The notes below the pieces were generated by a model. It was not told the DNA's origin. It searched no databases and was given only the letters and a program-made list of their open reading frames with translations. The position numbers and the translations under genes were made by a program. 64,000 bases of DNA, from positions 448,001-512,000 of the forward strand of contig CAWBZI010000002.1 of the NCBI GenBank assembly GCA_963793265.1. The letters are read 5' to 3'. Below, in pieces: positions 28,045 to 44,833 of this stretch (position 1 is the stretch's first letter; the number at the start of each line of letters is the position of its first letter). Source of the DNA: an uncultured cyanobacterium (GTDB lineage: Bacteria > Cyanobacteriota > Cyanobacteriia > Phormidesmidales > Phormidesmidaceae).

Positions 28045-28073
28045 TTGACACCGCTTAACCGTAACGATACGCT
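28045..28073 (+). promoter_or_regulatory. Sigma70-type promoter of structured leader, copy 1
   Basis: TTGACA-17 nt-TACGCT. Confidence 0.65.
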
Positions 28074-28079
28074 AGTTTT

Positions 28080-28275
28080 CATAGCTGTTATTAGCACTCA
28101 TCTGATACGTAACAGCTAAACCGCCCCGAAAAATTAGCCGCTGACGATGACTGCTCGAACAGTCACCGCCAGCTCGCCCTCAGACCGATCCAACCGGTCA
28201 GCGGGTTGTGGCGATTATGCCACAACCACCCTGACTTATGGCAAGTTGCGGGTGGCTTTTTTTTCGAGCGGCTTT
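28080..28275 (+). ncRNA. Putative structured leader RNA/attenuator, copy 1
   Basis: Five hairpins plus a long-range helix; same architecture with covariation at 44358-44552. Confidence 0.6.
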
Positions 28276-28666
28276 CTTAAACCCCTCATTGGAGAGCCCC
28301 TTGAAATCCATAATTCTCTTGACTGGCCGGCCTTCTAAAGGTCAGCCACAGCCTCTAGCACCCACTCAACAAACTATCTCCGAAAATCTCAACCCGCTCC
28401 CGCAGCTCACCACCTCCGGCACCCCGCAAAAGAAATCCGTTCGCCATATTCTGCTAGGCGAACCCGACGCCATCCGCCAAACCATTCACTTGTTGCATAC
28501 GCTGCACTACACCGAAACCATCTTGTGGAGCCCCGTTTTGACCATTGAAGAGCCATTGATAATGACGCCAATAGATACTTGCAATACAACCAGTCTGAGC
28601 CTTTTAATCGCTACAGAAAATCCAAAGAAAGCTAGAAACAACTGCAACAGCAGCGGCGTACCCTAA
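28238..28666 (+). CDS. Small hypothetical protein, paralog of 44588-44833 (start uncertain)
   Basis: VRHILLGEPDAIRQTIHLLHTLHYTETILWS aligns with VTHTIRGTLRAVQATIHTLFRLNYAEPNDWS. Confidence 0.55.
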   Translation: MASCGWLFFRAAFLNPSLESPLKSIILLTGRPSKGQPQPLAPTQQTISENLNPLPQLTTSGTPQKKSVRHILLGEPDAIRQTIHLLHTLHYTETILWSPVLTIEEPLIMTPIDTCNTTSLSLLIATENPKKARNNCNSSGVP

Positions 28667-28765
28667 AAAAACTCAACGTAAACCCAACTATTGATAAAAA
28701 TGCGAGATAGCGTAAAGCCGTCCATGAGCTTTGGCCTAATGTCTTTTGACTGTTTTTACTTAATT

Positions 28766-28799
28766 AAAAAGGCAACCGTAACTGATTACGGTTGCCTTT
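28766..28799. terminator. Intrinsic terminator (U-tract on minus strand)
   Basis: aaaaaggcaaccgtaa-ctga-ttacggttgccttt. Confidence 0.85.
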
Positions 28800-28860
28800 G
28801 CATGAGACGGATGCGCTATGCGGATACGCTGCTCTTTTATACTGATTGTTCTCTTTTGCG

Positions 28861-29160
28861 TTAGAACATGTAGCGCTTCTCTAACCAGCTCCGCAGTTCT
28901 GTTTCTGAGGCATTGCGAATGATTTTGTCAGAGGCTCTATCATTCGCATTCCAAATAGTTTGACCGCTGGCATCCTGAGTACTCCAAATATAGGGATCAG
29001 AGGAGCCGCAGAGCTGATAGGCTAACGTCTGTAGCAGCGTGTTGAGTCGAGATTTTAAGCTCCTCTGCGTCGAAATAGGAGAATTGGTTGAGTGGAAAGG
29101 CCAGAAAGCGCTATAGCTTGCTTGACGATTTGAGGGGTAGTAAGCACAGTTGTTGATCAT
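28861..29160 (-). CDS. Conserved-type cyanobacterial hypothetical protein
   Basis: AGGAG upstream of ATG; PYIWSTQDASGQTIWNAND...SETELRSWLEKRY. Confidence 0.65.
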   Translation of the reverse strand: MINNCAYYPSNRQASYSAFWPFHSTNSPISTQRSLKSRLNTLLQTLAYQLCGSSDPYIWSTQDASGQTIWNANDRASDKIIRNASETELRSWLEKRYMF

Positions 29161-29338
29161 AAAAGAATCTCCTTCTTGACTAAGAGAATAGATATTTTCT
29201 ATTTCTTTGGAACATCTATATAGTAAGAAAACGTAGCGAATGATACCAAAAGTAGATCGCATCTTTTGCATGAGCAAGTAGCATGAAAAGACCACCCCTC
29301 GGACAGATTGAACGGCTGATGGTTCTAATTCACTGCCT

Positions 29339-30424
29339 TTATTGAACCCGCACAACCTCAAGATTTCGTTGAGCCAAAGTCTCTTCAAATAGCTCAGTCG
29401 ATAGCGATTGTTCTACCGGCCAAATTCCCGGTTTTGTCAGCCGACCTGAGAGAATAAGCTGCGCGATCGCCCCTGTCCCACTGCCTGCACAGTACGCCGT
29501 ATCCTCATGATCTAGCGTAGAAATATAACTCGCAGGCTTACCATCTTTCTCCCCTTCAATCAGCATTCGCATCGCAATTCCAACCCCCGTACGCGGGTCA
29601 GTCACCTCAGTCATGCGATAGCTAATTTTCGCCAGCGCCTCTATCACCTTAGGACTATTCAAAAAGCCCCTCGGCGCACGAGCCATCAGCCAGGTGAGGC
29701 GATTGTAATAGTCAGGCACAGAGCCAAACTTTGTCACAATCGTTTTCAGCTCAGGAAACGTATCGGCCACCGTTAGCGCCTCAATCGTGTTGAACCAATA
29801 CACGCCACCCTTGCCATAGCGCGGAAACTCAATCACTTCTCTTTCGCTATAGGGTGCGATCGCCCGCCACTTTCCCTTAATCTTCGACATAAACGGCGTT
29901 TGCAATTCAATAAACGTCGTCCGCATCACCGTCACACCCGCCCCACCTGAGCCCGCCACCAAATAGCTCAGGTGCACCTTTTCAGCTTTGTCTAGCTGCT
30001 CAATTCCCTGGCGCACCATACTCCCCGAGATTCCAGGAAAAATGCCCGTCGCCACAATCGCCGTCACGCCTGCATCCTGCGCCTTTTGCCGGTACGTTAG
30101 CGCCTTGTTCACATAGTCGGGGCTATCGGCCACATCCACATAGGGTTTGCCCTGTTCAATGCAGCTCAGCAGCACGTGATGATTGCGGCTGCGGAAAGGC
30201 CCAGCGCAGTGAATGATTAAATCGTATGGCGCGATCGCCGCTACCACTGCCGCCTCATCCGTCAAATCCAAAGGCCGATAAGACTGCCGCTCAGAAAGAT
30301 CGAACGCCGCCGCCGCCATCCTGCCGGTCACCGTCACCTCAGCGTCCGTATGCCTCAGCACATCAGCCGCCACGCTCCGACCAATCCGACCATTGCCGCC
30401 AATCACCAAAACCTGCTGCACCAT
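29339..30424 (-). CDS. Saccharopine dehydrogenase-like NAD(P)-binding oxidoreductase
   Basis: VIGGNGRIG, IHCAGPF, YVDVAD, TGIFPGIS. Confidence 0.88.
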   Translation of the reverse strand: MVQQVLVIGGNGRIGRSVAADVLRHTDAEVTVTGRMAAAAFDLSERQSYRPLDLTDEAAVVAAIAPYDLIIHCAGPFRSRNHHVLLSCIEQGKPYVDVADSPDYVNKALTYRQKAQDAGVTAIVATGIFPGISGSMVRQGIEQLDKAEKVHLSYLVAGSGGAGVTVMRTTFIELQTPFMSKIKGKWRAIAPYSEREVIEFPRYGKGGVYWFNTIEALTVADTFPELKTIVTKFGSVPDYYNRLTWLMARAPRGFLNSPKVIEALAKISYRMTEVTDPRTGVGIAMRMLIEGEKDGKPASYISTLDHEDTAYCAGSGTGAIAQLILSGRLTKPGIWPVEQSLSTELFEETLAQRNLEVVRVQ

Positions 30425-30451
30425 CTCACCCAACCTCAACCGATATTTCTG

Positions 30452-30480
30452 CGGAGGGCGCAAAGCCTTGCGCCCCTACA
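30452..30480 (-). repeat. GTAG-type REP-like palindrome, copy 1
   Basis: Reverse complement tgtaggggcgcaaggctttgcgccctccg; near-identical copy at 41435. Confidence 0.7.
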
Positions 30481-30509
30481 CATCAACCCTACCGATGCAG
30501 GCTGGCTGC

Positions 30510-30947
30510 TCACATCCCCAAATCGGCTAAAATATCTTCCGCGTGCGTCTCAGTATTGATGCTGTCGTACACCTTCTTAATCACGCCCTTTCCGTCTATT
30601 ACAAAAGTCACACGCTTAGACTTACCGCTACCCTCTACTTCATAAGCCTGAGAAATAGTGCCCTCATCATCAACAATCAAAGGAAATGGCAGATCGAACT
30701 TCTCTTTGAACGCCTGGTGAGAAGCCTCATCGTCATGGCTTACGCCCAAAACAACAATATCTTTGCCGCCATAGGCTTCATAAGAATCGCGAAAGCTGCA
30801 AGCCTGCTTAGTACAGCCCGGCGTGTCGTCTTTAGGATAAAAGTAGAGGACAATCGTCTTGCCCTCAAAATCCGATAGTGATACGGAATTGCCCGCATCG
30901 TCTTTAGCCGTAAAGTTAGGGGCCGTAATACCTGCTGAAAGCGCCAT
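30510..30947 (-). CDS. Peroxiredoxin Q / BCP
   Basis: LYFYPKDDTPGCTKQACSFRD. Confidence 0.95.
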   Translation of the reverse strand: MALSAGITAPNFTAKDDAGNSVSLSDFEGKTIVLYFYPKDDTPGCTKQACSFRDSYEAYGGKDIVVLGVSHDDEASHQAFKEKFDLPFPLIVDDEGTISQAYEVEGSGKSKRVTFVIDGKGVIKKVYDSINTETHAEDILADLGM

Positions 30948-31161
30948 GAACAATTCTCCTAGTAGGGTCTATAAATCTGGATAACGCCAGATTTGAATGG
31001 GCCTCAGTGATTCTATCAAGACACCGCACCTAAGTGGCACATTCTATCGCGCTGGAATAAGACACTCTGTAGCTTTGGAGGTGTATAGCTCATCCCGACG
31101 AAAGGTAACATAGGAACTCTAGCGCTTTATCACCCCTCCATATCTCCGTCCTTAGCCGCTT

Positions 31162-31821
31162 ATGCGCTTTGAAACCCAACGGCTGATACTTCGGCCTTGG
31201 CAACCTAGTCAAGATGCCCGCCATGCGATGGATATCTATGGCGATAGTCAGGTGATGAAATGGATTGATGCTACCGCGATAGATACTTCGCTGCGGCAGG
31301 TGCAGGGGCGATTACAGCGGTATGTAGATAGCCCTAGTGACAAGATCATAGGGAGCTGGGCTGTAGAGCAAAAAGACATTGGTCGTGTCATTGGTCATGT
31401 GCTATTGATGCCGCTGCCTGACTTAGAAAATACGCGCCCAAAGCCAAACGAGTGGGCCGATATTAGAAGTAAGCGCGCTGAGCATATTGAAATTCAATAC
31501 CTAGACGGAATGCCGACTCACTACGTTGAAATTGGCTGGCACTTTCGCCCGGCTAGCTGGGGATTTGGCTATGCCACTGAGGCTGCAAAACGAGTTTGCC
31601 AGGTTGCCTTTGAGCAGCTAGCGCTATCGGTGCTGCTGGCGGTGACAGACCCGAAGAATGTGCGATCGCAGGCCGTCATGCACCGTCTAGGCATGATTCC
31701 CGACGGGCTCACCACTCGCTACTACGGCGGACAACCGTTACTTTTGTACAAACTCTATCCCGTTAAAACGCAGGCAATAGGCGAAATACGGCCTGCTACC
31801 GCCAAATTTCGTTCAAACTAA
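31162..31821 (+). CDS. GNAT family (RimJ/RimL-type) acetyltransferase
   Basis: ETQRLILRPW, EIGWHF..WGFGYATEAA, NVRSQAVMHRLGM. Confidence 0.9.
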   Translation: MRFETQRLILRPWQPSQDARHAMDIYGDSQVMKWIDATAIDTSLRQVQGRLQRYVDSPSDKIIGSWAVEQKDIGRVIGHVLLMPLPDLENTRPKPNEWADIRSKRAEHIEIQYLDGMPTHYVEIGWHFRPASWGFGYATEAAKRVCQVAFEQLALSVLLAVTDPKNVRSQAVMHRLGMIPDGLTTRYYGGQPLLLYKLYPVKTQAIGEIRPATAKFRSN

Positions 31822-31913
31822 CAGCAGGGCAACTATAATTTGTGCGCAGCTTTGCAGAACTTTTGGAATTACCTCTGATAGGTGTGTATACATGACGTTT
31901 CAAAGGGAACCAC

Positions 31914-32618
31914 ATGGTACAAAGCAAGCGTGCATCGATCGTTATGGGTCAACGAACCCGCCCTCAGCGTATGGATAGCTCAAACCCAAACCCAGAGCAT
32001 CTAAAACAGTTGGTCAGAGATACCTGCCAGCACCCCAAAGGTAGCCCTCAACGACAAAGAGGGCTCACTCGGCTTATCCGCGAAATCACAATTCAGCTAT
32101 GGCATACCTCCGATGCCTACTACCCAGATGCCCTACAGCAAACCTGGATCTACTTTTGCAAAAATCTCTGTGAAGCCACAACGGGCAGGGCTTATGACTG
32201 TGAAATAGCAACCCCGGTTACCTGGCTCAACGCCTACCTCAAGCGGCGATTACAAGACTTCAAGATTGCTGAAAATCGCGATCGCTACCAAACAGTATCC
32301 AGAGCTAGTCTCACGTTCACCAGCGAAGACGGCCCCATCGATCCGATTGACCAGCTCAGAGCCCCACCGGATATTCCCCCCTGGCTAGAGCAGGTTTACG
32401 ATTGGGTCGAGAAGAGTGAAGAACTCGAAACCATCCACATCGCTAAGCACCCCACCGTCACCGCCAAAGTCTTAATTCTTAAGCGCCTACCGCCCGAAAC
32501 GCCCTGGAAAACGCTTTCGGCAGAGTACGGCATTTCGATCGGCACGCTCAGCAGCTTTTACCAGCGGCAGTGCCTCTCAAAACTCAGAGAATACGGCAAG
32601 TCTCAAGGCTATCTATAG
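31914..32618 (+). CDS. Cyanobacterial sigma-70-like factor
   Basis: YPDALQQTWIYFCKNL, TWLNAYLKRRLQD, C-terminal HTH WKTLSAEYGISIGTLSSFYQRQC; precedes DUF1822. Confidence 0.65.
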   Translation: MVQSKRASIVMGQRTRPQRMDSSNPNPEHLKQLVRDTCQHPKGSPQRQRGLTRLIREITIQLWHTSDAYYPDALQQTWIYFCKNLCEATTGRAYDCEIATPVTWLNAYLKRRLQDFKIAENRDRYQTVSRASLTFTSEDGPIDPIDQLRAPPDIPPWLEQVYDWVEKSEELETIHIAKHPTVTAKVLILKRLPPETPWKTLSAEYGISIGTLSSFYQRQCLSKLREYGKSQGYL

Positions 32619-32708
32619 CTGTTCTCCACTCATATTTTTAGCGACATCTTCTTAAAAGCACCTCTTATTCCTCACACATCGGCTCTTGAATAGAGCTATT
32701 GGAACGTC

Positions 32709-33695
32709 ATGACGAACAACCTCTCTCAAGCAGCTAATCATCTCGGCAGCATCACGCTGCCGCTCACCACAGAATTTAAGCAAATTGCTCAATCGTTTGC
32801 CCAGCAGTGCCCTTTTGCTGAGAAAGTGCCGCAAATTCGGCGCAATACGCTAGCAGTATGCGCAGTAAATGCCTACCTACAGCTCATAGAAATTGATACG
32901 GACATCACCGCAGGCGATAGCTGGCATCCGATGATGCAGATGATGGGCGATGTGGCTGATTTGAAGGTGATCGATGCGGGCACGCTCTCATGTCGCCCGC
33001 TATTGCCTAATGAAGACACTTGCTATGTGCCGCCCGAAGATTGGAGCGATCGCACTGGCTACGTGGCCGTCGTGATTGATGAAAACGCGAGCCAGGCAAC
33101 GCTGTTGGGATTTACGAAGACGGTGGGAGAAGTAGAGCAGGTCGCGTTAGATACGTTTGAGCCCATAGAGACGCTGATTGATCGGGTGCATCGGGTGAAG
33201 GCGATCGCACAATCTCTCAATCAGGCCAAAACCGCTATCACCCAGTTCAGCGAGTGGACGCAGGGCGTAATATCAAGCACTTGGCAAGCCGTCGATACGT
33301 TTGTAAATCCAATGGGGCCCGAGTTTGCCGTTCGTGGAGAAGTAAGCGAGGTGGCTAAGGCAGTTGATACCGTTGATATCAGCCGCGCTCAGCTCGTTGA
33401 TTTGGGCACACAGTTTGGAGAATCAGTTCAAGTTGCCTTAGTCGTTCATCTCAGGCAGATATCGGCAGGCCAAAGCGAGATTTTGCTTCAGGTGAAGCCC
33501 CTCAACGAGACGCCTTTGCTACCTAAGAGCATTTCTCTATCCGTCTTTGATGAAAACGATGACTTGTTTAGAAGCACTACTTCAAGAGCGCTAGACAACT
33601 GTATTCAGCTACAAATCAGTGGCGAAGCGGGCGAAACCTTTAGTGTTCAAGTCAGTAAAGGTGAAAAGACTTTCACAGAGCGTTTTATGATTTAA
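32709..33695 (+). CDS. DUF1822 family protein
   Basis: NTLAVCAVNAYL, ADL, CRP, VPPEDWSDRTGYVAV, ATLLGF; C-terminal IQLQISGEAGETFSVQV. Confidence 0.85.
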   Translation: MTNNLSQAANHLGSITLPLTTEFKQIAQSFAQQCPFAEKVPQIRRNTLAVCAVNAYLQLIEIDTDITAGDSWHPMMQMMGDVADLKVIDAGTLSCRPLLPNEDTCYVPPEDWSDRTGYVAVVIDENASQATLLGFTKTVGEVEQVALDTFEPIETLIDRVHRVKAIAQSLNQAKTAITQFSEWTQGVISSTWQAVDTFVNPMGPEFAVRGEVSEVAKAVDTVDISRAQLVDLGTQFGESVQVALVVHLRQISAGQSEILLQVKPLNETPLLPKSISLSVFDENDDLFRSTTSRALDNCIQLQISGEAGETFSVQVSKGEKTFTERFMI

Positions 33696-33725
33696 CCAGA
33701 CATAAAGCTCCCAGGTAACCGCTCA

Positions 33726-34949
33726 GTGAACAAGCGCATTGTTATCAAAATTGGCCCCGGTAATATCAACACTGGATACGTGGCCTCGGTGCAAATTGGC
33801 AACGAAGGCGGTATGCCACACGCTGAAACGCAGGCGAGCTTGCCCCCAGCCCCCGATCTCGAAAAGATCTATCAGCAGTGGCAGCGCGCCTACTTGCAGT
33901 TGAGCCTGCCTTACCGGCTTGGGGCCTGTGACGGACAAACTAACGTATCGCAGGTGTTGGATGTAGAGTGGTGCCGAACCTTGAGCCGTCAGCTATGCGA
34001 TCGCGTCCACGACTGGCTGGTCTGCGACGAATTTCGTCCCATTCGCGAAAAGCTCCTAGAGCAGCTAAACCCCCAAGACAACACCCGCATCCTGCTACAA
34101 ACCCACGATCTGCTGCTCCAGCGCATTCCCTGGTACGAACTCGACTTTTTTCAGCGCTACCGCCAGGCCGAAGTTAGCATCTGCACCCCCGACTACCAGC
34201 AGGTCAACTACGTCGGCACCCGATCAGAGAAAGTGCGCGTGCTAGCCGTACTTGGCAACACCAAAGGGCTAGACACTCAAATCGATCAGACGCTTTTGAA
34301 GCAGCTCCCCAACGCCGACATTCAGTTTTTGCAAGAGCCGAGTCGCGAAGCTTTCAATGCTAGCCTTTGGGATGCTAGAGGCTGGGATATTTTATTTTTT
34401 GCAGGCCACAGCAGCAGCATAGAATGCAATCCCGACGAGGACGATAAGTCAGCAGCCGGTAGCGGTGAAATATCGCTGAGCGAAACCGAAAAGCTGACGA
34501 TCCCTCAGCTCAAACACGCCCTGAAAAAAGCCATTGACCGGGGCCTCAATACCGCTATTTTCAACTCTTGCGACGGCCTAGGCTTAGCCGCTGATTTGGC
34601 CGAACTACACATTCCGCAGGTGCTCGTCATGCGTGAGCCCGTACCCGATCAGGTCGCCCACGCCTTCCTTCAGGGCTTTCTAGAATCTTTCGCCACGGGC
34701 ACTCACTTCTACCTCGCCGTCCGCGAAGCCCGCGAAAAAATGCAGCCCCTAGAAGCCCGCTACCCCTGCGCCACCTGGCTCCCCGTAATTGTGCAAAACC
34801 CCGCCGAAACGCCGCCAACCTGGCTCTCACTGCAAGGCGACACCTCAGCTTACGCGCCTGGCTTTGACACCGAGGAACTTGATAGAACGGAATTAGTCAC
34901 CTTAGCCAAACGTTTACTCAAGATTCTTTCAAAGCAGCGGTCTGAGTAA
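33726..34949 (+). CDS. CHAT domain (caspase-like) protein
   Basis: LPPAP, LQRIPW, WDILFFAGHS, AIFNSCDGLGLA, MREPVPD, WLPVIVQN. Confidence 0.88.
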   Translation: MNKRIVIKIGPGNINTGYVASVQIGNEGGMPHAETQASLPPAPDLEKIYQQWQRAYLQLSLPYRLGACDGQTNVSQVLDVEWCRTLSRQLCDRVHDWLVCDEFRPIREKLLEQLNPQDNTRILLQTHDLLLQRIPWYELDFFQRYRQAEVSICTPDYQQVNYVGTRSEKVRVLAVLGNTKGLDTQIDQTLLKQLPNADIQFLQEPSREAFNASLWDARGWDILFFAGHSSSIECNPDEDDKSAAGSGEISLSETEKLTIPQLKHALKKAIDRGLNTAIFNSCDGLGLAADLAELHIPQVLVMREPVPDQVAHAFLQGFLESFATGTHFYLAVREAREKMQPLEARYPCATWLPVIVQNPAETPPTWLSLQGDTSAYAPGFDTEELDRTELVTLAKRLLKILSKQRSE

Positions 34950-35001
34950 GCTCATTCTGACTTCCTGCGACACCTCAACGACTTTGTTCCTTTTTTTGTC
35001 T

Positions 35002-35883: not shown

Positions 35884-35961
35884 GCCTGAGCCCGCAAACG
35901 TCTTGCAGAATTAATCAGACTAGGCCCGATAGGTAGATATACAGCGTTCCAAAGAGAGAAC

Positions 35962-36516
35962 ATGAAACCTGATAAATCTACCCCCGATTTCAGCATCCTA
36001 CGCGCCGCTATAGAAGGACTGCAAGACGGCTTTATTATTGCCAGCCAAACTGGCCTCATTGAAAAAATCAACGCGCCCGCCCAGCGAATCTGCGAGCTGC
36101 TCAAAGCTTCCGACACGCTACCTGTAGAAATTTGGCGCGTTTGCCAGGCTGCTCTCAAAAACCAGGACGTGCTTTCGTTTCAAAGAATTGGCCTTGATGC
36201 TGAAATCATTTTGCCTGAGCTAGGCAGCGTTCGCATTCGGGTAAAAAATATTCAGCTCGCCCAAGTGCCGCACTTATTGATTGTTTTAGAAGACCGGCAG
36301 CAAACCATCCGTAACAAAGCTCTCTCCGATGCCGCTCTGTTTGGTCTTACTGAGCGTGAAACCGAAGTGTGGCAGCTACGATTGCGCGGCGCTGACTATA
36401 ACGAAATTTCTACGACGCTTTGGATTAGCGCCAACACCGTTAAGAAGCACGTAAAAAACATTCTTGCCAAACAACGAAGCCACCAGGACGACACAGCGTA
36501 CGACCTGATGGCTTGA
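35962..36516 (+). CDS. LuxR-family HTH regulator with PAS-like N-terminus
   Basis: GLTERETEV...EISTTLWISANTVKKHVKNILAK. Confidence 0.9.
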   Translation: MKPDKSTPDFSILRAAIEGLQDGFIIASQTGLIEKINAPAQRICELLKASDTLPVEIWRVCQAALKNQDVLSFQRIGLDAEIILPELGSVRIRVKNIQLAQVPHLLIVLEDRQQTIRNKALSDAALFGLTERETEVWQLRLRGADYNEISTTLWISANTVKKHVKNILAKQRSHQDDTAYDLMA

Positions 36517-36558
36517 AATCATAAGGATTAGCGGCTGGGGCTCAGTCCATTCTGCAAT

Positions 36559-38163
36559 TTACTGCGCGATCGCTGGAACCTCAGACACCTTAGCCCCTGC
36601 AACCGGCATCTGCTCATGACCCAGCTCAGCAGCAATCTCCGCATTCCGAATCAAAACCGAGCGCTGCAATAAAGGCGTCCGCGCAACCGAGCTATTGGCG
36701 AGCTGAAGCAAAGGATTTGCCGCCACACCTGCAAGTGCAGTCACCGTCACCGCCAAAATCAAGCTCACCTGCAAAGGCCGCATTCCTGGCAAAGTCCAAT
36801 CGTTAACCGTGTAGGCTCTAACCTCATCAGACATTTCCTGCGGCTCTTTGACCACCATCATCTTCACCACACGAATGTAGTAGTAAATAGAGATCACACT
36901 GGTGATAAGTCCGACAAGGACTAGCGTGTAGGCACCCGCCTGCCAGCCCGCCCAGAAGATGTAGATTTTTCCGAAGAAGCCTGCCAGCGGTGGAATGCCA
37001 CCCAAAGACAGCAGGCAAAGGCTTAAGCACAGCGTCAGCAGCGGGTCTTTTTGGTAGAGGCCACTGTAGGCACTAATTTGATCGGTACCCGTACGCAGCG
37101 AGAACAGAATCACGCAGGTAAAGGCTCCCAGGTTCATAAATAAATAGATGAACAGGTAGAACACCAGGCTCGAGTAGCCCGCGTCCGTACCAATGATAAA
37201 GCCAATCATTACAATCCCAGCCTGACCAATCGAAGAGTAGGCCAGCAGACGCTTCATGCTCGTTTGAGCCAGCGCCACTACGTTCCCTAAAATCATGCTG
37301 AGAATAGCCAGCGCTGCAAAGACAAACCGCCACTGAGCAGACACCATCGGAAAGGCCGTGAGTAATAGGCGAATGGCCAGTGCAAAACCGGCTGTTTTAG
37401 AACCGACTGAGAGAAAAGCTACGACAGGTGTAGGAGAGCCTTCGTAAACGTCCGGCGTCCACTGGTGAAAGGGCACCGCCGCAACTTTGAAGGCGATCCC
37501 AGCAATGACAAATACCAGGGCAATAATCAACCCAATCGGCGCGGTTTCATTGGCCGCTGCGATCTGAGTCGCAATTAGGCTCAGGTTCGTTTCACCGCCT
37601 GATAGGCCGTACAGCAGCGACATGCCGTAAAGGAAAATGGCCGCACTCGCTGCGCCAATCAGCAAATATTTCAGCGCCGCCTCGTTAGAGCGCGGGTCGC
37701 GTTTCATGTAGCCCGTCAATAAATAAGACGAAATACTTAAGGTTTCTAGAGAGACAAAGACGGTGACTAGCTCGTCAGCACCTGAAAGGAACATCCCGCC
37801 AAGAGTTGCGGTGAGCAGGATGGCTAAAAACTCTGCCAGCGCGGTGCCTGAGCGTTCTACGTAGCGGATGCACATTGGCACGGTAACGGCTGCCGAGAGG
37901 GCAATAATGCCGCGGAAAACAATGCTTAAATCGTCTCCATTGAATGCGCCCAAAAAGGCAATCGGTTCGGCGGCTCCCCATTGAAAATAGAGGCCAACCA
38001 CTGCGGTTAAAAGACCTGCGATCGCCACATAAGGCAACCACTTCGTAACTGCCCTACCGCCCACAATGTCGGTAATAAGGATTGCCATGATCGTGACTAT
38101 CACAATCCCTTCTGGCAAAATGATGCCCGCATTTAACTGAGCGGCAATATTGGCAAAGTCCAT
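36559..38163 (-). CDS. ndhB: NAD(P)H-quinone oxidoreductase subunit 2 (B)
   Basis: [52 protein letters not shown]. Confidence 0.98.
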
Positions 38164-38618
38164 CGACTACGGCCCAATAAAGGAGCCTGATAAGGTTTTC
38201 CACTTGAAAGCTTACCGTGTATTTTCCGATAATCCCACCGCCGCCGAGAATAAGTTGATAATTTAGGCCAGAATTTAGCCCAGAGGGATCGGTTGGATCG
38301 GCGATCGCGCCAAAAACTTAATAGACAGATCTTCCCGAAGAGCGCTACAACGAAAACACGCTATTCGACTTATAAAGATCGACATGGGTTTGCCATAGGT
38401 TTACAAGAGGGGGTAGACGGAAAGGCCCCTTTTGATCTATCGCTATAAATAGAGGCAACTTGATATGAGTGGTCTAGCCCCTGCCCTTCCTATCTATTTT
38501 GTTAGAGAGGATTAGCTATCAAGACGTAGCTTTCAGGTACGCATCTTGGGAACGCTTCATATCAACCTCATGAAGCATCGCTTTCTTATTAACCCCCGCT
38601 AAAAAAGCACAGGTCGTA

Positions 38619-41366
38619 ATGTCTACGCTCGTCATTGTTGAGTCACCCACCAAAGCCAAAACCATTCGCAACTTCCTGCCAAAAGGCTATCGGGTAGAGG
38701 CTTCGATGGGCCATATTCGCGATTTGCCTAAGTCGGCCAAGGAGATTCCGGCCAAGGTGAAAAAAGAAAAGTGGGCTCAAATTGGCGTGAACACAGAGGC
38801 CGATTTTGAGCCTTTGTATGTGATCCCTGCGGATAAAAAGAAGGTTGTTAAAACCCTCAAAGATGCCCTAAAAGAAGCCGATGAGCTGGTACTAGCGACT
38901 GACGAAGACCGCGAAGGTGAAAGCATTAGCTGGCACCTGATGGAGGTGCTTAAGCCTAAGGTGCCAACGAAGCGAATGGTGTTTCATGAAATTACCAAGG
39001 AAGCCATTCAAGAAGCCCTTTCTAACTGCCGCACCATCGACGACAAGCTGGTTCATGCTCAAGAAACGCGCCGCATTTTAGACCGGCTCGTGGGCTACAC
39101 CGTCTCGCCTTTGCTATGGAAAAAGATTGCGTTTGGCCTCTCTGCGGGTCGCGTGCAGTCGGTATCCGTTCGCCTGCTCGTTGAACGCGAGCGGGCTAGA
39201 CGCGCGTTCCGCCGAGGGTCTTACTGGGATCTCAAGGCAGCTTTGCTCAAGTCTGCGGACAAGGATAAAAGTCCTTTTGATGCCAAGCTGGTTTCAGTCG
39301 GCGGCACCCGCGTAGCTAACGGCAGCGACTTTGACGAATCCACTGGCCAGGTGAAAGCAGGCCGCAACGTACTGCTCCTCAATGAGCAAGAGGCTCAGGC
39401 GCTACGAGTCCGCTTAGAGTCTAGCGCTTGGAGCGTTGCCAATTTAGAAGAGAGGCCTAATACGCGCAAACCTGCCCCGCCGTTTACCACCTCCACGCTT
39501 CAGCAGGAGGCTAACCGTAAGCTCGGACTTTCAGCTCGCGATACGATGCGAACGGCGCAAGGGCTGTATGAGAAAGGTTTTATTACCTATATGAGAACGG
39601 ATTCGACGAGTTTATCGAAGCAGGCGATCGCGGCAGCTAGAAGCTGTGTTGAAACCAAATACGGCAAAGACTACCTCAGCCCAAAACCCCGCCAGTTCTC
39701 AGCTAAGAGCAAAGGTGCCCAAGAGGCCCACGAAGCCATTCGCCCGTCTGGTGAAGTGTTCCGCACACCTCAAGATACGCCTTTAAAAGAACGTGAGCTA
39801 AAGCTATACGATCTGATTTGGAAGCGCACGGTCGCCACGCAAATGGCAGAAGCGCGTCAGACCAATATCACCGTTCAAATTGAAGCAGACGATGCCATTT
39901 TCAAAGCGACCGGCAAACGCATCGATTTTCCTGGATTCTTCCGCGCCTATGTAGAAGGTTCAGATAATCCTGATGCTGCCATTGAGAACCAAGAGATCGT
40001 GCTGCCTGCGATGAAGCAAGGCGATTCTCTAGACTGTTCGAGCTTAGAAGCGATTGGTCATGAAACCCAGCCACCGGCTCGCTACACAGAAGCCAGCCTA
40101 GTTAAGACACTTGAGAAAGAAGGCATTGGCCGCCCGAGTACCTATGCAACCGTGATTAGTACGGTTGTCACTCGCCGCTATGCCGAACTGATCAACAACA
40201 GCCTTGTGCCAACGTTCACAGCATTCGCAGTCACTGAGCTGTTAGAGAAGAACTTCCCTGATCTTGTAGATGTCCACTTTACGGCGAACATGGAGCAAAC
40301 GTTAGACGAGATCTCTACGGGTAGTGAAGAATGGCTACCGTATCTGAAGAAGTTTTATAACGGAGAAAAGGGTCTGGCTGGGCAGGTAGAACAGCGCCAG
40401 GACAACATCGATCCAACAGAAGCGCGGACGGTTGATCTTGATGATTTGATGGCTAAAGTACGCATCGGTAAATATGGCGCGTATGTAGAGCTAGAGAAAG
40501 ACGAAGAAACTGTTAGAGCCTCGATTCCTGACGGCGTTAGCCCGGCTGATTTAGACGACGAGCAGGTGGAAGTTCTGCTGAAGCAAAAGACAGAGGGGCC
40601 AGAGAAAATTGGGCTTCATCCTGAAACGGGCGAGCCAATGTATATGCTGATTGGTCGCTTTGGCCCGTACGTGCAGCTTGGCGATGTCACGGAAGAAAAC
40701 AAAAAGCCTAAGCGCACCTCTTTGCCTAAAGGCGTAAAAGCTGAAGATGTCGATCAGGAGATGGCGGTTGCGCTACTTTCTCTACCTCGTTTGCTAGGCG
40801 TTCATCCTGAAACGGGCAACAATATCAAGGCGAACTTAGGCCGCTTTGGCCCGTACGTTGTGCATACCAAAGGTAGAGAAGACGGTAAAGACGACTACCG
40901 CTCAATTAAGGGCGACGATGACATGCTGACTATTCAGCTTGATCGGGCCTTGGAGATGTTAGCGCAGCCTAAAGCTGGTCGTGGGCGGAAGGCAGCGACG
41001 CCTATTCATGAAATTGGTAAGCATCCGGCTGATGAGGAGCCTATCAACGTGTATGACGGGCCTTATGGGCCTTACATTAAGCATGGCAAGGTGAATGCGT
41101 CGGTGCCTGAGGGTAAGAAGCCTGAAGAGGTGACCGTAGAGGAGGCGGTTGCACTGCTCGAAGAGAAGGGTGGTGCGGTGAAGAAGAAGAAGACAACTAA
41201 GAAGAAAACGACTGCGAAGAAGAGTACGGCTAAAAAAGGAACGACTAAGACAGCGGCGGCGAAGAAGAGAACGGCGAAGACGACGACTGCGAAGAAGGCA
41301 ACAACGGCGAAGAAAGGAACGACGGCGAAGAAGAAGACTAAAGCGGCTAGTGAGGTAGGAGAATAG
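38619..41366 (+). CDS. topA: DNA topoisomerase I
   Basis: [45 protein letters not shown]; Topo_C repeats; Lys-rich tail. Confidence 0.98.
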
Positions 41367-41434
41367 ATTTTAGACGTTCGGATTGATATCAGTCGGAGAA
41401 CCTTATGCAGGAGCGTATATGTAGGGTTTAGAGT

Positions 41435-41463
41435 CGGAGGGTGTAAAGCCTTACGCCCCTACA
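41435..41463 (-). repeat. GTAG-type REP-like palindrome, copy 2
   Basis: cggagggtgtaaagccttacgcccctaca. Confidence 0.7.
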
Positions 41464-41510
41464 GGAGGCTGGATATGAGCATGATTTGTTCAACTTAAGG
41501 GCTCACAGCT

Positions 41511-42251
41511 ATGGCTATGCAACTTGATCAGGTTGTTCCTTTTGGGCGCTCTTTGGATGAGTACGTCAGGATGTTTTCGCTGAGCGATCGCAATCTAAAA
41601 TCATCCATACTAAGCGTCGCTGACGGCCCTGCTAGCTTCAACGCTGAAGGCACTGCCAAAGGCTACAGCATTCAGTCTGTTGATCCACTGTACGAATTTG
41701 AAGGCGATGAAATCAAAAAGCGCTTTTATGCCGTACGAGACAACATCATTCAGCAAATACGCGACACTCAAAACGACTGGGTGTGGAACTTTCACGACTC
41801 ACCAGACACCTTGAGCCAAACGAGAACAAACGTTACCGAACGCTTTGCGGCTGATTACGCGCTAGGTAAGCAGCAAGGTCGCTACATCACAGGCCAACTA
41901 CCGAACCTTAGCATTGCTGATAATGCGTTCGATCTGGGCCTTTGTTCGCACTTCCTATTTCTATACTCTCAGCAGTTCAATACGGCCTTTCATATCGCCG
42001 CCATTGATGAAATGCTGAGAGTCTGTAAAGAAGTCAGGATTTTTCCACTGCTGACATTAATGGGCAAAACCTCACCACACCTTGAGCCTGTTGTGAGTCA
42101 TTTAGAGAAAAAGGGCTACTCTGAACGGAAACAAGCAGACGAAGGGACGCGATCTTTTTGGATTATTGAAACGGTAGACTACGAGCTGCAAAAAGGCGGG
42201 AATAAGATGCTGAGAATTGTGACGAATGCTGACAGACCTTCGAGCGATTAA
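41511..42251 (+). CDS. SAM-dependent methyltransferase-like protein
   Basis: GRSLDEYVRMF, DGPASFNAE, FDLGLCSHFLFLY, EVRIFPL. Confidence 0.8.
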   Translation: MAMQLDQVVPFGRSLDEYVRMFSLSDRNLKSSILSVADGPASFNAEGTAKGYSIQSVDPLYEFEGDEIKKRFYAVRDNIIQQIRDTQNDWVWNFHDSPDTLSQTRTNVTERFAADYALGKQQGRYITGQLPNLSIADNAFDLGLCSHFLFLYSQQFNTAFHIAAIDEMLRVCKEVRIFPLLTLMGKTSPHLEPVVSHLEKKGYSERKQADEGTRSFWIIETVDYELQKGGNKMLRIVTNADRPSSD

Positions 42252-42267
42252 AAAGTTAGCGATCGCG

Positions 42268-42714
42268 CTATTTCTGAATGAGGACAGCTCCGGCAAGCAT
42301 CATTAGCGTTCCTAAGAGGCGAGATCCGTTGGGAGAAATTTGCTCAACGCCAAACGCGCCCGTAGAATCTAAAACTAGCGACATGATTACCTGCCCAGCG
42401 ATGACCAAAGAAAAAACAGAAGCGACTCCTAGCTTTGGAATAGCCACGAGTGACGACACTAAGTAGTAGGCCGCAAAAACACCGCCTAACCATGCCCAAG
42501 TTGGGACGGCATTAAACGCAGGTAGCGACCCTCGCTCAACAGTGCCGCTAGCCCAAAGTAACAGAAGTGAAAACAGGCTGACGCTCAGCGACACAATGGT
42601 TGTAAGGATCGGAGAATCCGTTGAGAGCCGAAGACGAGCGTTCCAAGTAATTTGAACAGCTAGACCTGCTCCGCCCAGCGCGACCAAAAAAAGAAGAAAC
42701 AATCGGTTGAGCAT
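42268..42714 (-). CDS. DMT family (YdcZ/DUF606-like) transporter
   Basis: NARL, WAWLGG, PKLG, AGQVIMSLVLD. Confidence 0.85.
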   Translation of the reverse strand: MLNRLFLLFLVALGGAGLAVQITWNARLRLSTDSPILTTIVSLSVSLFSLLLLWASGTVERGSLPAFNAVPTWAWLGGVFAAYYLVSSLVAIPKLGVASVFSLVIAGQVIMSLVLDSTGAFGVEQISPNGSRLLGTLMMLAGAVLIQK

Positions 42715-42805
42715 GAATATGGCCGAGTAATTTGTGCGCTGATATCGTCACACAGTCTACAGTTATACAGGCGCACAAACATAGGTGTAAGTAAAGGCAG
42801 AGGCC

Positions 42806-43984
42806 ATGGAACCGAAAAGCTACCAGGAATACGTTGTCGGTGTGATGACGATGGACGTGGAGGGCAAAAACTCTGAGCGCTTTCTTGACTATGTGACTAA
42901 AGCTATCGGCAATTTTGAGCTTGCGCTTAAAGAATCGCTCTGTGTTCGTGTAGAGATGCTTTCTTTTGAAGGGCCACATCTAATGCCAACCGCCGGAGCC
43001 TATGCGCCGCTCGATTTCTTGCACATCGGCATGACCGAAAAGATAGAGCGGGGCGTGCACTTTTTGCTTATTATCACCGAAGTTGACTTATCAGCAGCTT
43101 CGTTCAGCTCTACGCTAGCACTACCTAGCCAGCTTACGAATGTTGGCATTATCTCAACAAAACGCCTCAACCCTACGTTTTGGGGCGGCTCGGAAGATAA
43201 GCCGCTGACTGTACGTCGTTTAGAAACGCTGCTGCTCCGTACGTTTAGCTGCCTGCTAAATCTCTCTTATTCTAAACATCCGCAAAACATCATGTATGAC
43301 TTTGTAGCGGTAGAAGATCTTGCCCAGATGGTTCACTTTACAGACCGTCAGCGCCAGCAGATGCAGCGCGCGCTGCCTCGGGAGGCTCACGAAAGAACGA
43401 GTCGGCGGAATCGATGGCGGTTTGTTCTGGCTACTTTGTTTAGAGACCAAAAGAGTATTGCGATCGCTGTTATCCGAGCCAATCCTTTTCGCCTGCTCAC
43501 CCGCCTGCCGACGATGATTACCGCAGCGCTCTCCACTATTATCTTTTTATTTTTTACCCCTGATATGTGGGACGTTGCCAGCACAGTTGAACTCTATCAG
43601 CTCATTGTATTTTCTATCATTGCGATCGCTGCTGCCACCGCTGCGCTATACCGGGCCTTTGCCTTTGGCGACATTCTTAGCCGCCGCCGAATGCTAGCAG
43701 AATCAACCGTTGTGACAAGTGCGGCCACGATTGTAAGCCTGCTGCTCACGATGTCTCTACTGTTTACCATTTTCATGAGCTTCCTCTACTTAGGCACCGT
43801 TACTATTTTTCCGCGCAAGCTCATGGAAACCTGGCCCACGGTAGATCCTGCGGTACGCACTATAGATCATATAAAGCTGAGCATATTTGTAGCGGCTTTG
43901 GGAGTACTAGCCGGTTCTCTCGGCGGGCGAGCCGATAGTAATGGGCTCATACGCGGCGTTCTTTTTGTTGATGAAGAGACGTAG
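42806..43984 (+). CDS. Hypothetical protein: metzincin-like soluble domain + multi-TM C-terminus
   Basis: LLLRTFSCLLNLSYSKHPQNIMY segment; four hydrophobic helices at the C-terminus. Confidence 0.6.
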   Translation: MEPKSYQEYVVGVMTMDVEGKNSERFLDYVTKAIGNFELALKESLCVRVEMLSFEGPHLMPTAGAYAPLDFLHIGMTEKIERGVHFLLIITEVDLSAASFSSTLALPSQLTNVGIISTKRLNPTFWGGSEDKPLTVRRLETLLLRTFSCLLNLSYSKHPQNIMYDFVAVEDLAQMVHFTDRQRQQMQRALPREAHERTSRRNRWRFVLATLFRDQKSIAIAVIRANPFRLLTRLPTMITAALSTIIFLFFTPDMWDVASTVELYQLIVFSIIAIAAATAALYRAFAFGDILSRRRMLAESTVVTSAATIVSLLLTMSLLFTIFMSFLYLGTVTIFPRKLMETWPTVDPAVRTIDHIKLSIFVAALGVLAGSLGGRADSNGLIRGVLFVDEET

Positions 43985-44322
43985 TATTTTTTAACGAAAC
44001 CGTCGGGAAATTCGCCGCTCAGTTTCCGATATTACAATAAGGGTTTGCAGCAAACGAGATTCGACATTTCCGAAAGGCTGCTCGCAAACTCTCAGCGGAA
44101 CTTCGGAAACTCACCGAGGTGTGTGCATTTGAATAACATACCGTTTGTAGTTGCGCTATTTGTAGTTGTGCTCACAATGGTGCATAGCAGTGCTATGCAC
44201 TTGCATTTATCGGCGGTGTTGACGTAGAGGTTTGACACTACTGTGCCCTAGTACGTGGTCATCGCCAAGCGCTCAGCCTACCCTAACCTTCAAGCCTGCC
44301 TCAGCGTTCCATCACATTCCAC

Positions 44323-44351
44323 TTGACGGCAGCAGAAAATCAGATTATCGT
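44323..44351 (+). promoter_or_regulatory. Sigma70-type promoter of structured leader, copy 2
   Basis: TTGACG-17 nt-TATCGT. Confidence 0.6.
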
Positions 44352-44357
44352 CAGTTC

Positions 44358-44552
44358 TAAGCTGTGATGCCTATCACAGTCGTTCTCACCAGAACTCGAT
44401 TTCACTCAGCACTATCGATAGGTGCGGCAAACACCTACCGATAGCTAACCCCCGGACTACCAGTCAGTCTCGGCGGCTAGAGTCACTTTACTCTAGCCAC
44501 CCCGATTTGCACTACATTTTCGCGGGGTGGCTTAGTTTAGTGGAGTTCTGGT
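44358..44552 (+). ncRNA. Putative structured leader RNA/attenuator, copy 2
   Basis: Same hairpin order as 28080-28275 with compensatory changes. Confidence 0.6.
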
Positions 44553-44587
44553 TTCCTACCCAACCCAACATCTGGAAACCAGAAACA

Positions 44588-44833
44588 ATGCTCATTTCAT
44601 CTAGTCCAGACGCCTTCGCGTCCACCGTTCCCCCTGTCGGCAATTCCTCATTCCGCCCAGAAGACAGCCCTGAAGTCACTCACACCATACGCGGCACCCT
44701 TCGCGCCGTCCAAGCCACTATCCACACCCTATTCAGGCTCAACTACGCCGAGCCCAACGACTGGAGCAAACCCATCCCCACCGGACGAAATAACGAAGTC
44801 ATGGTCGTGTTGACCCGGCGCGTTAGAGGGTAG
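44588..44833 (+). CDS. Small hypothetical protein (frame open back to 44507)
   Basis: HTIRGTLRAVQATIHTLFRLNYAEPNDWSKPIPTG..EVMVVLTR. Confidence 0.65.
   Translation: MLISSSPDAFASTVPPVGNSSFRPEDSPEVTHTIRGTLRAVQATIHTLFRLNYAEPNDWSKPIPTGRNNEVMVVLTRRVRG

Follow-up and report, generated by a model that had tools for sequence, protein, structure and literature searches.

P4 CI and P1 C4 RNAs are same-strand products, cut out of the very transcript whose repeats they pair with. They resemble the cassette described here in having a structured leader and conditional termination ahead of small genes. For plasmid rep control, the account in PMC5703833 describes pT181 RNAI, pIP501 RNAIII, and pSK41 RNAI as two-hairpin countertranscripts of ~80 nt with a promoter mid-leader and a pre-emptor, all features that we predict here. 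Binding induces a terminator in pT181 and pIP501, and an RBS-sequestering hairpin ~100 nt downstream in pSK41 (PMC5703833). The AapA/IsoA systems of H. pylori, as covered in PMC5416894, occupy several chromosomal loci (six) and combine a cis-antisense RNA of two hairpins that covers the 5' leader (here predicted), loop-loop kissing that gives cognate specificity, and a full-length mRNA in which the RBS is masked; AapA itself, a membrane peptide of 30 aa, needs 3' trimming for its activation. Ldr/Rdl and Ibs/Sib of E. coli are described in PMC4147584 as hydrophobic toxins of at most ~35 aa in four to five copies, and no sequence relation to the cassette was detected. Very few toxin modules under antisense control are known from cyanobacteria. 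As predicted for the cassette, the type I candidates MsoT1/MsoA1 (PMC12390103) and Ncl1450/Ncr1470 (bioRxiv 10.64898/2025.12.20.695498) pair a cyanobacterial small protein with a cis-antisense RNA, but the proteins of both are membrane proteins and MsoA1 binds a 3' end; the Microcystis screen deliberately excluded cytosolic toxins.

The window analyzed here, a 64,000-nt stretch from an uncultured cyanobacterium (Phormidesmidaceae; GCA_963793265.1, contig CAWBZI010000002.1, positions 448,001-512,000, forward strand), contains two loci for which the first-pass annotation had proposed a shared ordered architecture. Every element it listed was found in place, but its "two copies" are part of a set of 24 dispersed through this genome. 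Each is a cassette of ~550 bases with a promoter, a structured leader, and a gene for a protein of 80-120 aa. All 23 leaders in this genome stand ahead of a small-protein ORF, and the sole leaderless ORF has lost its 5' end. A single peptide pattern recovered 515 loci of the protein family, which was present in 32/101 genomes sampled from the class. Relatives had 0-75 cassette copies per genome, with dozens in many filamentous cyanobacteria, and decayed copies were present. An Rfam search of the window returned no match at E ≤ 1, in line with the first-pass annotation, which did not recognize the leader as a named Rfam family, and a literature search found no published description. The cassette differs from AapA/IsoA in its soluble β-α-β-β domain protein of 80-120 aa, its up to 75 copies, and a predicted antisense RNA that stops ~80-110 nt before the start codon and would work by refolding. 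Unlike pT181, pIP501, and pSK41 it has no Rep gene or origin, and its copies are dispersed among chromosomal neighbors; a search of the plasmid collection did not turn up the leader.

Table 1 Features of the two cassette copies in the window (copy 1, 28045-28666, subfamily A; copy 2, 44323-44833, subfamily B). Letters c to f are the hairpin labels of the first-pass annotation.
Copy	Feature	Position	Strand	Detail
1	Sense promoter	28045..28073	+	-35 TTGACA 28045, 17-nt spacer, -10 TACGCT 28068; predicted start ~28080
1	P0, 5' hairpin of sense transcript	28082..28118	+	Fold; G.U 118 vs A.C 25 across leaders
1	P1 5' strand	28121..28139	+	28118-28139 pairs with 28254-28275 (-20.2 kcal/mol)
1	P2 target hairpin (c)	28140..28173	+	Hypervariable loop ~28154-28159; A.C pairs read G.U on minus strand
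1	J2/3 linker, pre-emptor-like	28172..28179	+	Alternative partner of P5 3' arm; duplex -13.5 kcal/mol
1	P3 target hairpin (d), variable loop	28177..28205	+	Strand-asymmetry counts
1	Predicted antisense RNA, ~79 nt, two hairpins and U-tract	28129..28207	-	Predicted from sequence
1	P4 hairpin (e)	28204..28227	+	Fold; arms pair 9/9
1	Predicted antisense promoter	28214..28244	-	Extended -10 TGnCATAAT (hexamer 28219-28214), -35 TTGCCA 28244-28239
1	P5 hairpin (f) then T8, predicted conditional terminator	28224..28264	+	Fold
1	Switch strand X and P6 hairpin	28258..28306	+	P6 predicted to mask GGAG at 28291 and start codon
1	Small-protein ORF	28301..28666	+	TTG start 28301 behind GGAG
2	Sense promoter	44323..44351	+	TTGACG 44323, 17 nt, TATCGT 44346; predicted start ~44358
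2	P0 hairpin	44362..44379	+	Fold; sequence also TGTGA-N6-TCACA
2	P1 5' strand	44388..44411	+	44388-44397 pairs 10/10 with 44543-44552
2	P2 target hairpin	44408..44446	+	Hypervariable loop 44425-44431
2	J2/3 linker and P3 hairpin	44444..44474	+	P3 loop ~44459-44465
2	Predicted antisense RNA	44405..44478	-	First base = A of AGCC; no U-tract, 3' end uncertain
2	P4 hairpin	44475..44498	+	Fold; arms pair 9/9
2	Predicted antisense promoter	44485..44512	-	-10 TAAAGT 44490-44485, -35-like GTGCAA 44512-44507, 16-nt spacer
2	P5 hairpin	44495..44532	+	No U-tract
2	Switch strand X and P6	44543..44584	+	X (44543-44556) pairs either P1 or RBS arm 44574-44584 (P6, 11 bp)
2	Intact 81-aa small-protein gene	44588..44833	+	Disordered N-terminus, then β-α-β-β domain (model)

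Both sense promoters named in the first-pass annotation are present, that of copy 2 picked up by a consensus scan and that of copy 1 missed by it; the copy 1 promoter is kept in the 12 subfamily A copies and its type occurs in 73/94 leaders. The long-range helix proposed for each copy and the full pairing of hairpin e in both were confirmed (Table 1). Neither leader was matched in stability by any of 200 shuffles (folding z-scores -7.13 for copy 1 and -7.53 for copy 2), and copy 1 folds into a four-way junction. P0 is a sense-strand helix because G.U pairs far exceed A.C pairs in it across leaders. The inverted repeat in the P0 of copy 2 is perfect in only 10/29 subfamily B leaders. The small proteins had been called paralogous, and homology was indeed found, but copy 1 diverges after ~28569, where its last β-strand is missing and unrelated sequence takes its place. 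The earlier observation that both frames run back into hairpin f reading GWL proved incidental, as these are open in only 3/24 copies; the real starts are the TTG of copy 1 and an ATG at 44588 behind GGAA in copy 2.

Base-pair counts separate the hairpins by strand. Tallied on the sense strand as A.C:G.U, a measure that favors neither strand, the 96 leaders gave 190:19 for P2, 136:20 for P3, 12:41 for P4, and 34:108 for P5, and 65 held-out new leaders gave 122:6, 93:11, 8:51, and 22:89. RNA energies gave a greater asymmetry (-8.3/-4.4 kcal/mol) than DNA energies did (-2.9/-1.1 kcal/mol), and 16/17 antisense pairs had compensatory changes. Hairpins c and d were correctly located by the first-pass annotation, though not on their better-folding strand: the sequences of P2 and P3 are suited to folding on the minus strand, and the A.C "mismatches" are the clue that was missed. 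The P4 loop contains a -10 box for the minus strand, placed 6-8 nt ahead of an AGCC whose pairing partner is the P4 base, in 91/96 leaders (shuffles: mean 30, max 43), at fixed spacing in 63/65 held-out leaders (shuffles: mean 7.6, max 19), and in 30/30 leaders from four other genomes. This test is partly inflated, since the P4 loop is AT-rich and semi-palindromic and the sense strand also passes in 69/96 leaders. The antisense -35 is weak with a 16-19 nt spacer, the 19 nt of copy 1 being long. An A-run supplying an antisense U-tract was found in only 36/94 leaders, among them copy 1, where it lies at 28129-28133 in the P1 5' strand with a minus-strand terminator match.

The strand asymmetry and the -10 box together therefore predict a two-hairpin cis-antisense RNA of ~80 nt, which is very probably made and represses its leader. 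The antisense-controlled module with a switch before the small protein that had been suggested earlier is thus supported by the asymmetry, the antisense promoter, covariation, and alternative pairings, and the cis-antisense RNA found in type I toxin-antitoxin systems has its counterpart here, as a prediction from the first three.

Strand X has two competing partners. Its pairing with P1 beat shuffled sequence in 77/80 leaders, its pairing with the RBS arm (P6) did so in 79/80, and the two overlap in 78/80. The duplex of J2/3 with the P5 3' arm averaged -11.3 kcal/mol across the family vs -9.2 for shuffles. With the antisense target computationally blocked, pairing of the P5 base rose from 0.00 to 0.49 in copy 1 and from 0.02 to 0.95 in copy 2, while the cost of opening the RBS rose from 6.0 to 8.9 and from 5.7 to 9.2 kcal/mol, respectively. 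The mean RBS-opening cost was 6.7 kcal/mol (89 leaders), so that the hidden RBS of type I systems is found here too. The computed shift to a terminator or RBS hairpin is clear in both window copies and partial family-wide: P5 already formed without antisense in 29/60 U-rich leaders, and blocking raised the RBS cost by > 1 kcal/mol in only 39/89.

The loops are hypervariable. In close pairs of copies, which are incompletely independent, the P2 loop differed at 89/153 positions (58%) vs 126/559 fourfold sites (22.5%; Fisher p 2e-16), and the P3 loop at 32%, modestly above neutral. Loop pairs were distinct in 23/23 copies in this genome and in 22/22, 11/11, 8/8, 8/8, 8/8, and 8/9 in others. Complements of the loops on the same strand showed no excess (4 and 13 of 96 vs ~12.5 with loops swapped between copies), and the predicted regulator is on the opposite strand, so the likeness to P4 CI and P1 c4 seen by the first-pass annotation was not supported; with no internal target repeats found and no Rfam match in the window, the evidence speaks against an immunity RNA of that type. 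In IS110-type bridge RNAs, variable loops match donor or target DNA. Here loop 6-mers matched their own flanks in 4 and 6 of 94 cases vs ~10 swapped, which speaks against that identity too.

The modeled α/β protein is soluble, and Pfam, NCBIfam, and PHROG held no family for it, nor was there a fold match. Comparison with transposase folds gave best Z-scores of 5.2 (rmsd 4.1, 60 aligned) and 5.6 (rmsd 3.1, 87 aligned), from generic ferredoxin-like halves. There is no invariant catalytic residue in the family. Type I systems usually, though not obligatorily, have a small hydrophobic membrane toxin; here a transmembrane helix was indicated (KD19 ≥ 1.6) in only 6/269 homologues.

Common neighbors of the copies were HigBA, PIN, Fic, and restriction genes. 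Uma2 genes lay within 1.5 kb of 6/24 copies vs 0.52 expected, a family picked after the neighbors had been seen. An HTH or RHH repressor gene stood directly upstream at 25/44 leaderless loci. In other genomes the same leader preceded unrelated cargo genes, including one for an HTH_36 protein whose similarity to replication initiators of phages is weak (Pfam E 2.9e-5; PHROG E 0.0044), and in this other-cargo set P4 folded better on the antisense strand in 28/30. Breakpoints in 24 close pairs were ragged, without fixed ends, terminal repeats, or target duplication, which speaks against an insertion sequence or MITE.

We propose that every copy works as a cassette on its own, with a pair of convergent promoters. 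The one on the sense strand would give a leader of ~220 nt plus the ORF, and the minus-strand promoter, with its -10 box in the P4 loop, an antisense RNA of ~80 nt with hairpins P3' and P2' that would recognize its own leader through loop-loop kissing. Binding would mask the J2/3 pre-emptor, the P4 base, and part of the P1 5' strand, so that the leader would leave the long-range P1 state for P5 and P6; P5 would act as a terminator where a U-tract is present (copy 1), P6 would sequester the ribosome-binding site, and cleavage of the duplex by RNase III is also likely. Because loops differ between copies, each would be silenced by itself only. Gene transfer and recombination, either illegitimate or at short homologies, probably spread the copies, without a fixed-end transposase.

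What was computed here (the cassette's anatomy, its asymmetry between strands, conserved promoters, alternative pairings, and hypervariable loops) is best read as belonging to a selfish, probably addictive antisense-locked cassette, a reading to which we give an even chance; copy-specific loops would have been selected because the cassette is selfish. Its likeliest form, with chances just as balanced, is an addiction module whose protein is harmful once the private antisense RNA is lost. The lack of any toxin-like feature in the protein counts against addiction, and attenuation by itself cannot cause post-segregational killing. Under the same antisense control the cargo could instead aid establishment or spread, copy-number control of the plasmid type having been reused as an "arrival switch" in which a copy with new loops escapes the resident antisense RNAs and releases a burst of an anti-defense, recombination, or replication helper. 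We consider this rather unlikely. The layout shared with pT181, pIP501, and pSK41 (PMC5703833), the exchange of cargo including the HTH_36 protein, the spread from 0 to 75 copies among relatives, and leaderless homologues on plasmids (13 records) and beside ParG/RHH, integrase, and RecD2 genes all favor it, but a mobility protein acting in trans would not select private loops in each single copy, the copies lack defined ends, the leader was not found on plasmids, and the gene was absent from the phages and viral contigs searched.

A host-beneficial, stress-responsive family, in which a tunable or short-lived antisense RNA senses arrest of transcription and the loops drift freely as changes are mirrored automatically, would explain why the protein is under purifying selection (differences of 7% in amino acids vs 22.5% at fourfold sites). 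It would also suit a related cassette whose ORF is deeply covered in contigs of four soil/biocrust RNA libraries, against an upstream flank at ~10-fold depth, although such coverage fits an inert mRNA pool and an expressed harmless gene equally. This reading is made improbable by a scattered distribution (from 0 to 44 copies in a single genus), by a lack of conserved synteny (the gene upstream of copy 2 has 11 orthologues without the cassette), by decayed copies, and by a P2 loop that outpaces neutral sites. P1 and P6 exclude each other, much as helices do in a translational ON switch, and this and the four-way junction of copy 1 would suit a purely cis-acting device (riboswitch-like or bound by the small protein) or a P4 CI/P1 C4-type RNA processed out of the sense leader, either one working without an RNA from the opposite strand; hairpins designed for the minus strand, loops hypervariable unlike a conserved aptamer, the missing same-strand targets, and the fixed register of the minus-strand -10 box render this very unlikely. 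It is scarcely credible that P2 and P3 are bottom-strand ssDNA hairpins (attC-like or HUH transposase ends) with loops as recombination or guide sequences: their folding is strand-specific and their occurrence dispersed and multicopy, but they are internal to ragged ends, the asymmetry is much smaller with DNA energies, the loops do not match their own flanks, and HIP1 was not enriched at cassette ends (8/48 vs 11 expected).

Returning to the selfish cassette, its fullest version is one we hold tentatively, at somewhat less than an even chance: a portable lock-and-key cassette based on antisense RNA, which probably arose from the copy-number control of a plasmid or phage and is now a selfish chromosomal element in filamentous cyanobacteria that reaches 20-75 copies per genome because a loop code of its own comes with every new copy (a natural set of dozens of RNA switches, orthogonal to one another and under diversifying selection), and that captures varied cargo. 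The main cargo would be a new class of soluble RNA-controlled toxin or a mobility helper, which could alternatively be placed under an HTH repressor that has an operator of its own. Known chromosomal type I repeats number four to six, several-fold fewer than the copies reached here, and with dozens of copies living side by side, each with different kissing loops, the evolution of RNA-RNA specificity, as in plasmid incompatibility and cognate antitoxins, becomes testable within one genome. The cassettes may yield orthogonal riboregulators for cyanobacterial engineering, and the swapping of cargo by the leader hints at more undescribed effector proteins.

A profile search of the source genome, an uncultured Phormidesmidaceae (G000), recovered 24 copies of the cassette, 12 resembling copy 1 (subfamily A) and 12 resembling copy 2 (subfamily B), so the two copies claimed in the first-pass annotation both exist as members of a larger set. 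All of the leader elements it listed were found where it placed them, and both window leaders were strongly structured relative to shuffles (z of -7.13 for copy 1 and -7.53 for copy 2). No Rfam match reached E ≤ 1 across the window, as expected from its remark that the leader belongs to no named Rfam family, and ARAGORN found nothing. Alignment of sequence upstream of homologues, which it had suggested, placed one leader core in 97 of the 144 gene loci examined. The small-protein frame that it read back into the leader as GWL is open in only 3/24 copies, and a GWL leader peptide was rejected. Below, the leader hairpins and helices are numbered P0 to P6 from 5' to 3', with P1 the long-range helix and P6 the RBS-hiding hairpin.

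Features of the window, the source genome and related loci.
Feature	Location	Observation
Copy 1, start	window 28301	TTG; ORF broken at about 28569
Copy 2, start	window 44588	ATG
Region in place of the copy 1 3' end	window 28570-28800	Unique sequence; stop-interrupted remnant frame and inverted repeat (28768-28799)
Genes close to copy 2	window 45892-48123	HTH gene, 305-aa gene of no assigned function, convergent N6/N4 methylase; probable type II restriction-modification locus including a controller protein
Long ORF	window 56276-61792	1838 aa
Gene fragments and one 5'-truncated copy	G000:C5:175451-175522; C6:588582-588710; C7:323263-323418; C4:698547-698765	
Repeats 3' of the stop codon, locus L012	G000:C5:176950-177140	Imperfect ~22-nt tandem repeats
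Natural tandem fusions of two small domains	G229:C1:248290-248793; G212:C117:4360-4857	Also protein P0126
Leader directly before a 213-aa protein	L265:1686-2324 (G221:C3)	PD-(D/E)XK-like motif by eye; beside an mnmE/trmE-like gene

Because an A.C opposition becomes a G.U pair when the complementary strand is read, pairs could be counted in a strand-neutral way. Across 96 distinct leaders, sense-strand A.C:G.U counts were 190:19 in P2 and 136:20 in P3, and 12:41 in P4 and 34:108 in P5. P2 folded better as antisense in 94/96 leaders and P3 in 89/96. The pattern recurred in a held-out set of 80 further loci (70 with a full leader, 65 of them new), with 122:6 for P2, 93:11 for P3, 8:51 for P4, and 22:89 for P5 in the 65 new leaders. 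P0 was a sense helix (25:118); a CRP box at P0 was disfavoured, as its changes were of the G.U type and the box was perfect in only 10/29. On the minus strand the P4 loop reads as a -10 box whose end lies 6-8 nt ahead of an AGCC that complements the P4 base. This register was satisfied in 91/96 leaders (shuffles mean 30, maximum 43), 63/65 held-out leaders (shuffles mean 7.6, maximum 19), and 30/30 leaders from four other genomes. The P5 loop contains a -35-like word, spaced 16-19 nt from the -10 box. The sense strand also passed in 69/96 leaders because the P4 loop is AT-rich and near-palindromic. The antisense consensus comprised two hairpins with compensatory changes in 16/17 pairs (45 of 97 leaders used). 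Its copy 1 version ends with a U-tract, which a terminator scan called on the minus strand; only 36/94 leaders had such a U-tract. The YUNR motif was enriched in antisense P3 loops (63/167, shuffled maximum 45) and showed no enrichment in antisense P2 loops (35, shuffled maximum 37). The leader very probably contains an antisense RNA gene that controls the cassette.

The sense leader also has alternative pairings. The strand 3' of P5 pairs with the P1 5' strand better than shuffled sequence in 77/80 leaders and with the RBS arm of P6 in 79/80, and the two uses overlap in 78/80. Without antisense RNA, the linker between P2 and P3 and the P4 base would compete for the arms of P5. In equilibrium models of folding, which omit co-transcriptional kinetics, forcing the antisense target to be unpaired raised P5-base pairing in both window copies (copy 1, 0.00 to 0.49; copy 2, 0.02 to 0.95). 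Across the family, mean pairing rose from 0.47 to 0.89 in 60 U-rich leaders, 29 of which already formed P5 without antisense, and from 0.31 to 0.79 in 35 others. The modelled cost of opening the RBS rose from 6.0 to 8.9 kcal/mol (copy 1) and from 5.7 to 9.2 kcal/mol (copy 2), and across 89 leaders it increased by >1 kcal/mol in 39 and fell by >1 in 3. Copy 1, with T8 behind P5, resembles pT181/pIP501 attenuation, and copy 2 resembles RBS burial in pSK41, both as outlined in PMC5703833. Seven loci (L031, L100-L102, L105, L106, L110) carry ~100 nt extra between P5 and the RBS and retain the switch core.

The P2 and P3 loops differed among otherwise similar leaders. In 22 close pairs, picked at ≤6% difference outside these loops so that low values there are by construction, 58% of P2-loop positions and 32% of P3-loop positions differed. 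As an unconditioned control, ORF fourfold sites differed at 126/559 (22.5%) and amino acids at 7% in 24 pairs, at least one of them misaligned; the P2 loop (89/153) exceeded the fourfold control at p = 2e-16, although pairs are not fully independent. Loop pairs were distinct in 23/23 leaders of G000, 22/22 examined in genome G169, 11/11 in another genome, 8/8 in three genomes, and 8/9 in G047, where the one identical pair arose by recent duplication (1/25 fourfold sites differ). C4/CI RNAs such as P4 CI and P1 C4 have targets in the same transcript, and the loops of bridge RNAs guide to DNA. Neither the transcript nor the flanks of a cassette matched its own loops, which removes both the C4/CI-type and the bridge-RNA-type readings. 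The earlier proposal of a switch or antisense-controlled module is supported by strand asymmetry, the minus-strand -10 box, covariation, and alternative pairings; its likeness to P4 CI and P1 c4 is not supported.

The small protein is not a membrane peptide; AlphaFold predicted a confident beta-alpha-beta-beta core preceded by a disordered N-terminus. Searches of Pfam, NCBIfam, PHROGs, and PADLOC gave no significant match, and a wide alignment had no invariant residue. Every cluster returned by an Atlas search was hypothetical and cyanobacterial; one bore the automatic name 'peptide ABC transporter substrate-binding protein', which Pfam did not support. Fold searches with the monomer and the natural tandem fusion P0126 gave only generic matches, which are not proof of a new fold, and we therefore assign no function. 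The tandem fusions hint that the protein may act as a dimer. In G000, 23/23 leaders precede a small-protein ORF, and the single leaderless ORF lacks its 5' end. Overall, 47 loci lacked the core; L021, a fragment in L037, and L038 were set aside as uninformative, and in 25 of the remaining 44 the adjacent upstream gene encoded an HTH or RHH protein (17 divergent HTH, 5 tandem HTH, 3 RHH/ParG). By eye, short inverted repeats that varied in sequence lay between the repressor and the small-protein gene. None of the seed HTH/RHH proteins occurred upstream of leader-bearing loci. With a leader or an HTH/RHH gene upstream of most, the gene usually has a negative regulator of its own, either an RNA or a protein. 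At nine leaderless loci (L065, L076, L077, L081-L083, L151, L154, L156) the gene and a repressor of one Xre family are divergently oriented, and the short inverted repeats vary from locus to locus, suggesting diversified repressor-operator pairs. Other leaderless homologues (L056-L059, L062, L070), among them L056 and L057 on named Nostocales plasmids, carry one hairpin 5' of the RBS; its arms contain HIP1, and its loop resembles the subfamily A P5 loop.

Similarity between copies begins 5-25 nt 5' of the -35 box and ends at or soon past the stop codon, and flanks were unrelated even among four B copies with leaders 92-94% identical. Breakpoints were ragged in 24 close pairs, and no terminal repeat or target duplication was found. 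HIP1 was not enriched at cassette ends (8/48 flanks vs 11 expected), and HIP1-defined ends were rejected. The gene upstream of copy 2 has eleven orthologues without a cassette within 1.5 kb; no clean empty site was found among these relatives, which are ~80% identical and lose synteny downstream of that conserved gene. Gene fragments and a 5'-truncated copy in G000 indicate that cassettes decay. Neighbours were mixed housekeeping genes and Uma2, PIN, HigBA, Fic, and restriction genes; Uma2, picked after the neighbours were inspected, lay within 1.5 kb of 6/24 copies (0.52 expected). Named homologues were cyanobacterial, mostly Phormidesmis and Leptolyngbyaceae. The gene was found in 16/18 genomes of the genus (0-44 matches per genome) and 21/151 of the phylum, and the leader covariance model matched 32/101 genomes of the class. 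One 5.3-Mb genome, G264, had 75 small-protein matches. Phage and viral collections yielded no copy of the gene, and a plasmid collection no leader; thirteen plasmid records contained the gene, and the five inspected all lacked the leader.

The leader is portable, with swappable cargo. Among the best 30 leader matches across genomes, 24 precede the small-protein gene, while G229 had 57 leader matches vs 10 gene matches. For 30 leaders of G229, G212, G221, and G032, with the ORF chosen by us, the cargo was the small-protein gene in 3, a family of 115-210 aa in 8, a 72-aa family in 7, HTH_36 in 3, and a 213-aa protein in 1; 8 were left unassigned. The HTH_36 cargo has weak likeness to phage replication initiators, and the 213-aa protein had no Pfam or PHROG match. 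In G229 and G212 (L266, L272-L294) the leader stands before three unrelated cargo families: ~125 aa with an Xis-like winged-helix-like N-terminus by eye, a 72-aa helical family, and the HTH_36 protein. RNA evidence was limited to L128, a related cassette in G167, and came from contigs of other organisms. In contigs from four RNA libraries of soil or biocrust, which give no strand, ends or level, summed depths on that cassette were ~10^2-10^5 vs ~10 on the upstream flank, inflated by multicopy summing and possibly DNA. Run X16 peaked over the P2-P3/P0 interval (~9000 vs 100-500 on the ORF), but runs X1 and X2 were deeper on the ORF, so the peak is at most a weak hint.

Private loops would be selected only if each copy gains by being deaf to the antisense RNAs of the others. 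An addiction module would gain in this way, because identical loops would let one duplicate rescue the other, and we give addiction through a private antisense RNA about an even chance. Private loops would likewise benefit an incoming copy that needs an expression burst to establish, and this reading, in which the cassette serves establishment or spread, is possible though doubtful. A benefit to the host is improbable, and the remaining readings together are slightly more so.

The nearest working model is AapA/IsoA, with six loci whose cognate specificity is determined by the sequence of the loops, as outlined in PMC5416894. The cassette cargo is unlike the usual type I peptides as PMC4147584 outlines them, and the two published cyanobacterial candidates are membrane proteins (PMC12390103; bioRxiv 10.64898/2025.12.20.695498); PMC5415839 gives only general context. 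A literature search found no account of the cassette, though these genes or RNAs could appear in supplements or subscription journals, which lay outside its coverage. The cassettes are a real, apparently undescribed family that puts known regulatory logic to use on an unusual scale, with cargo that can be swapped.
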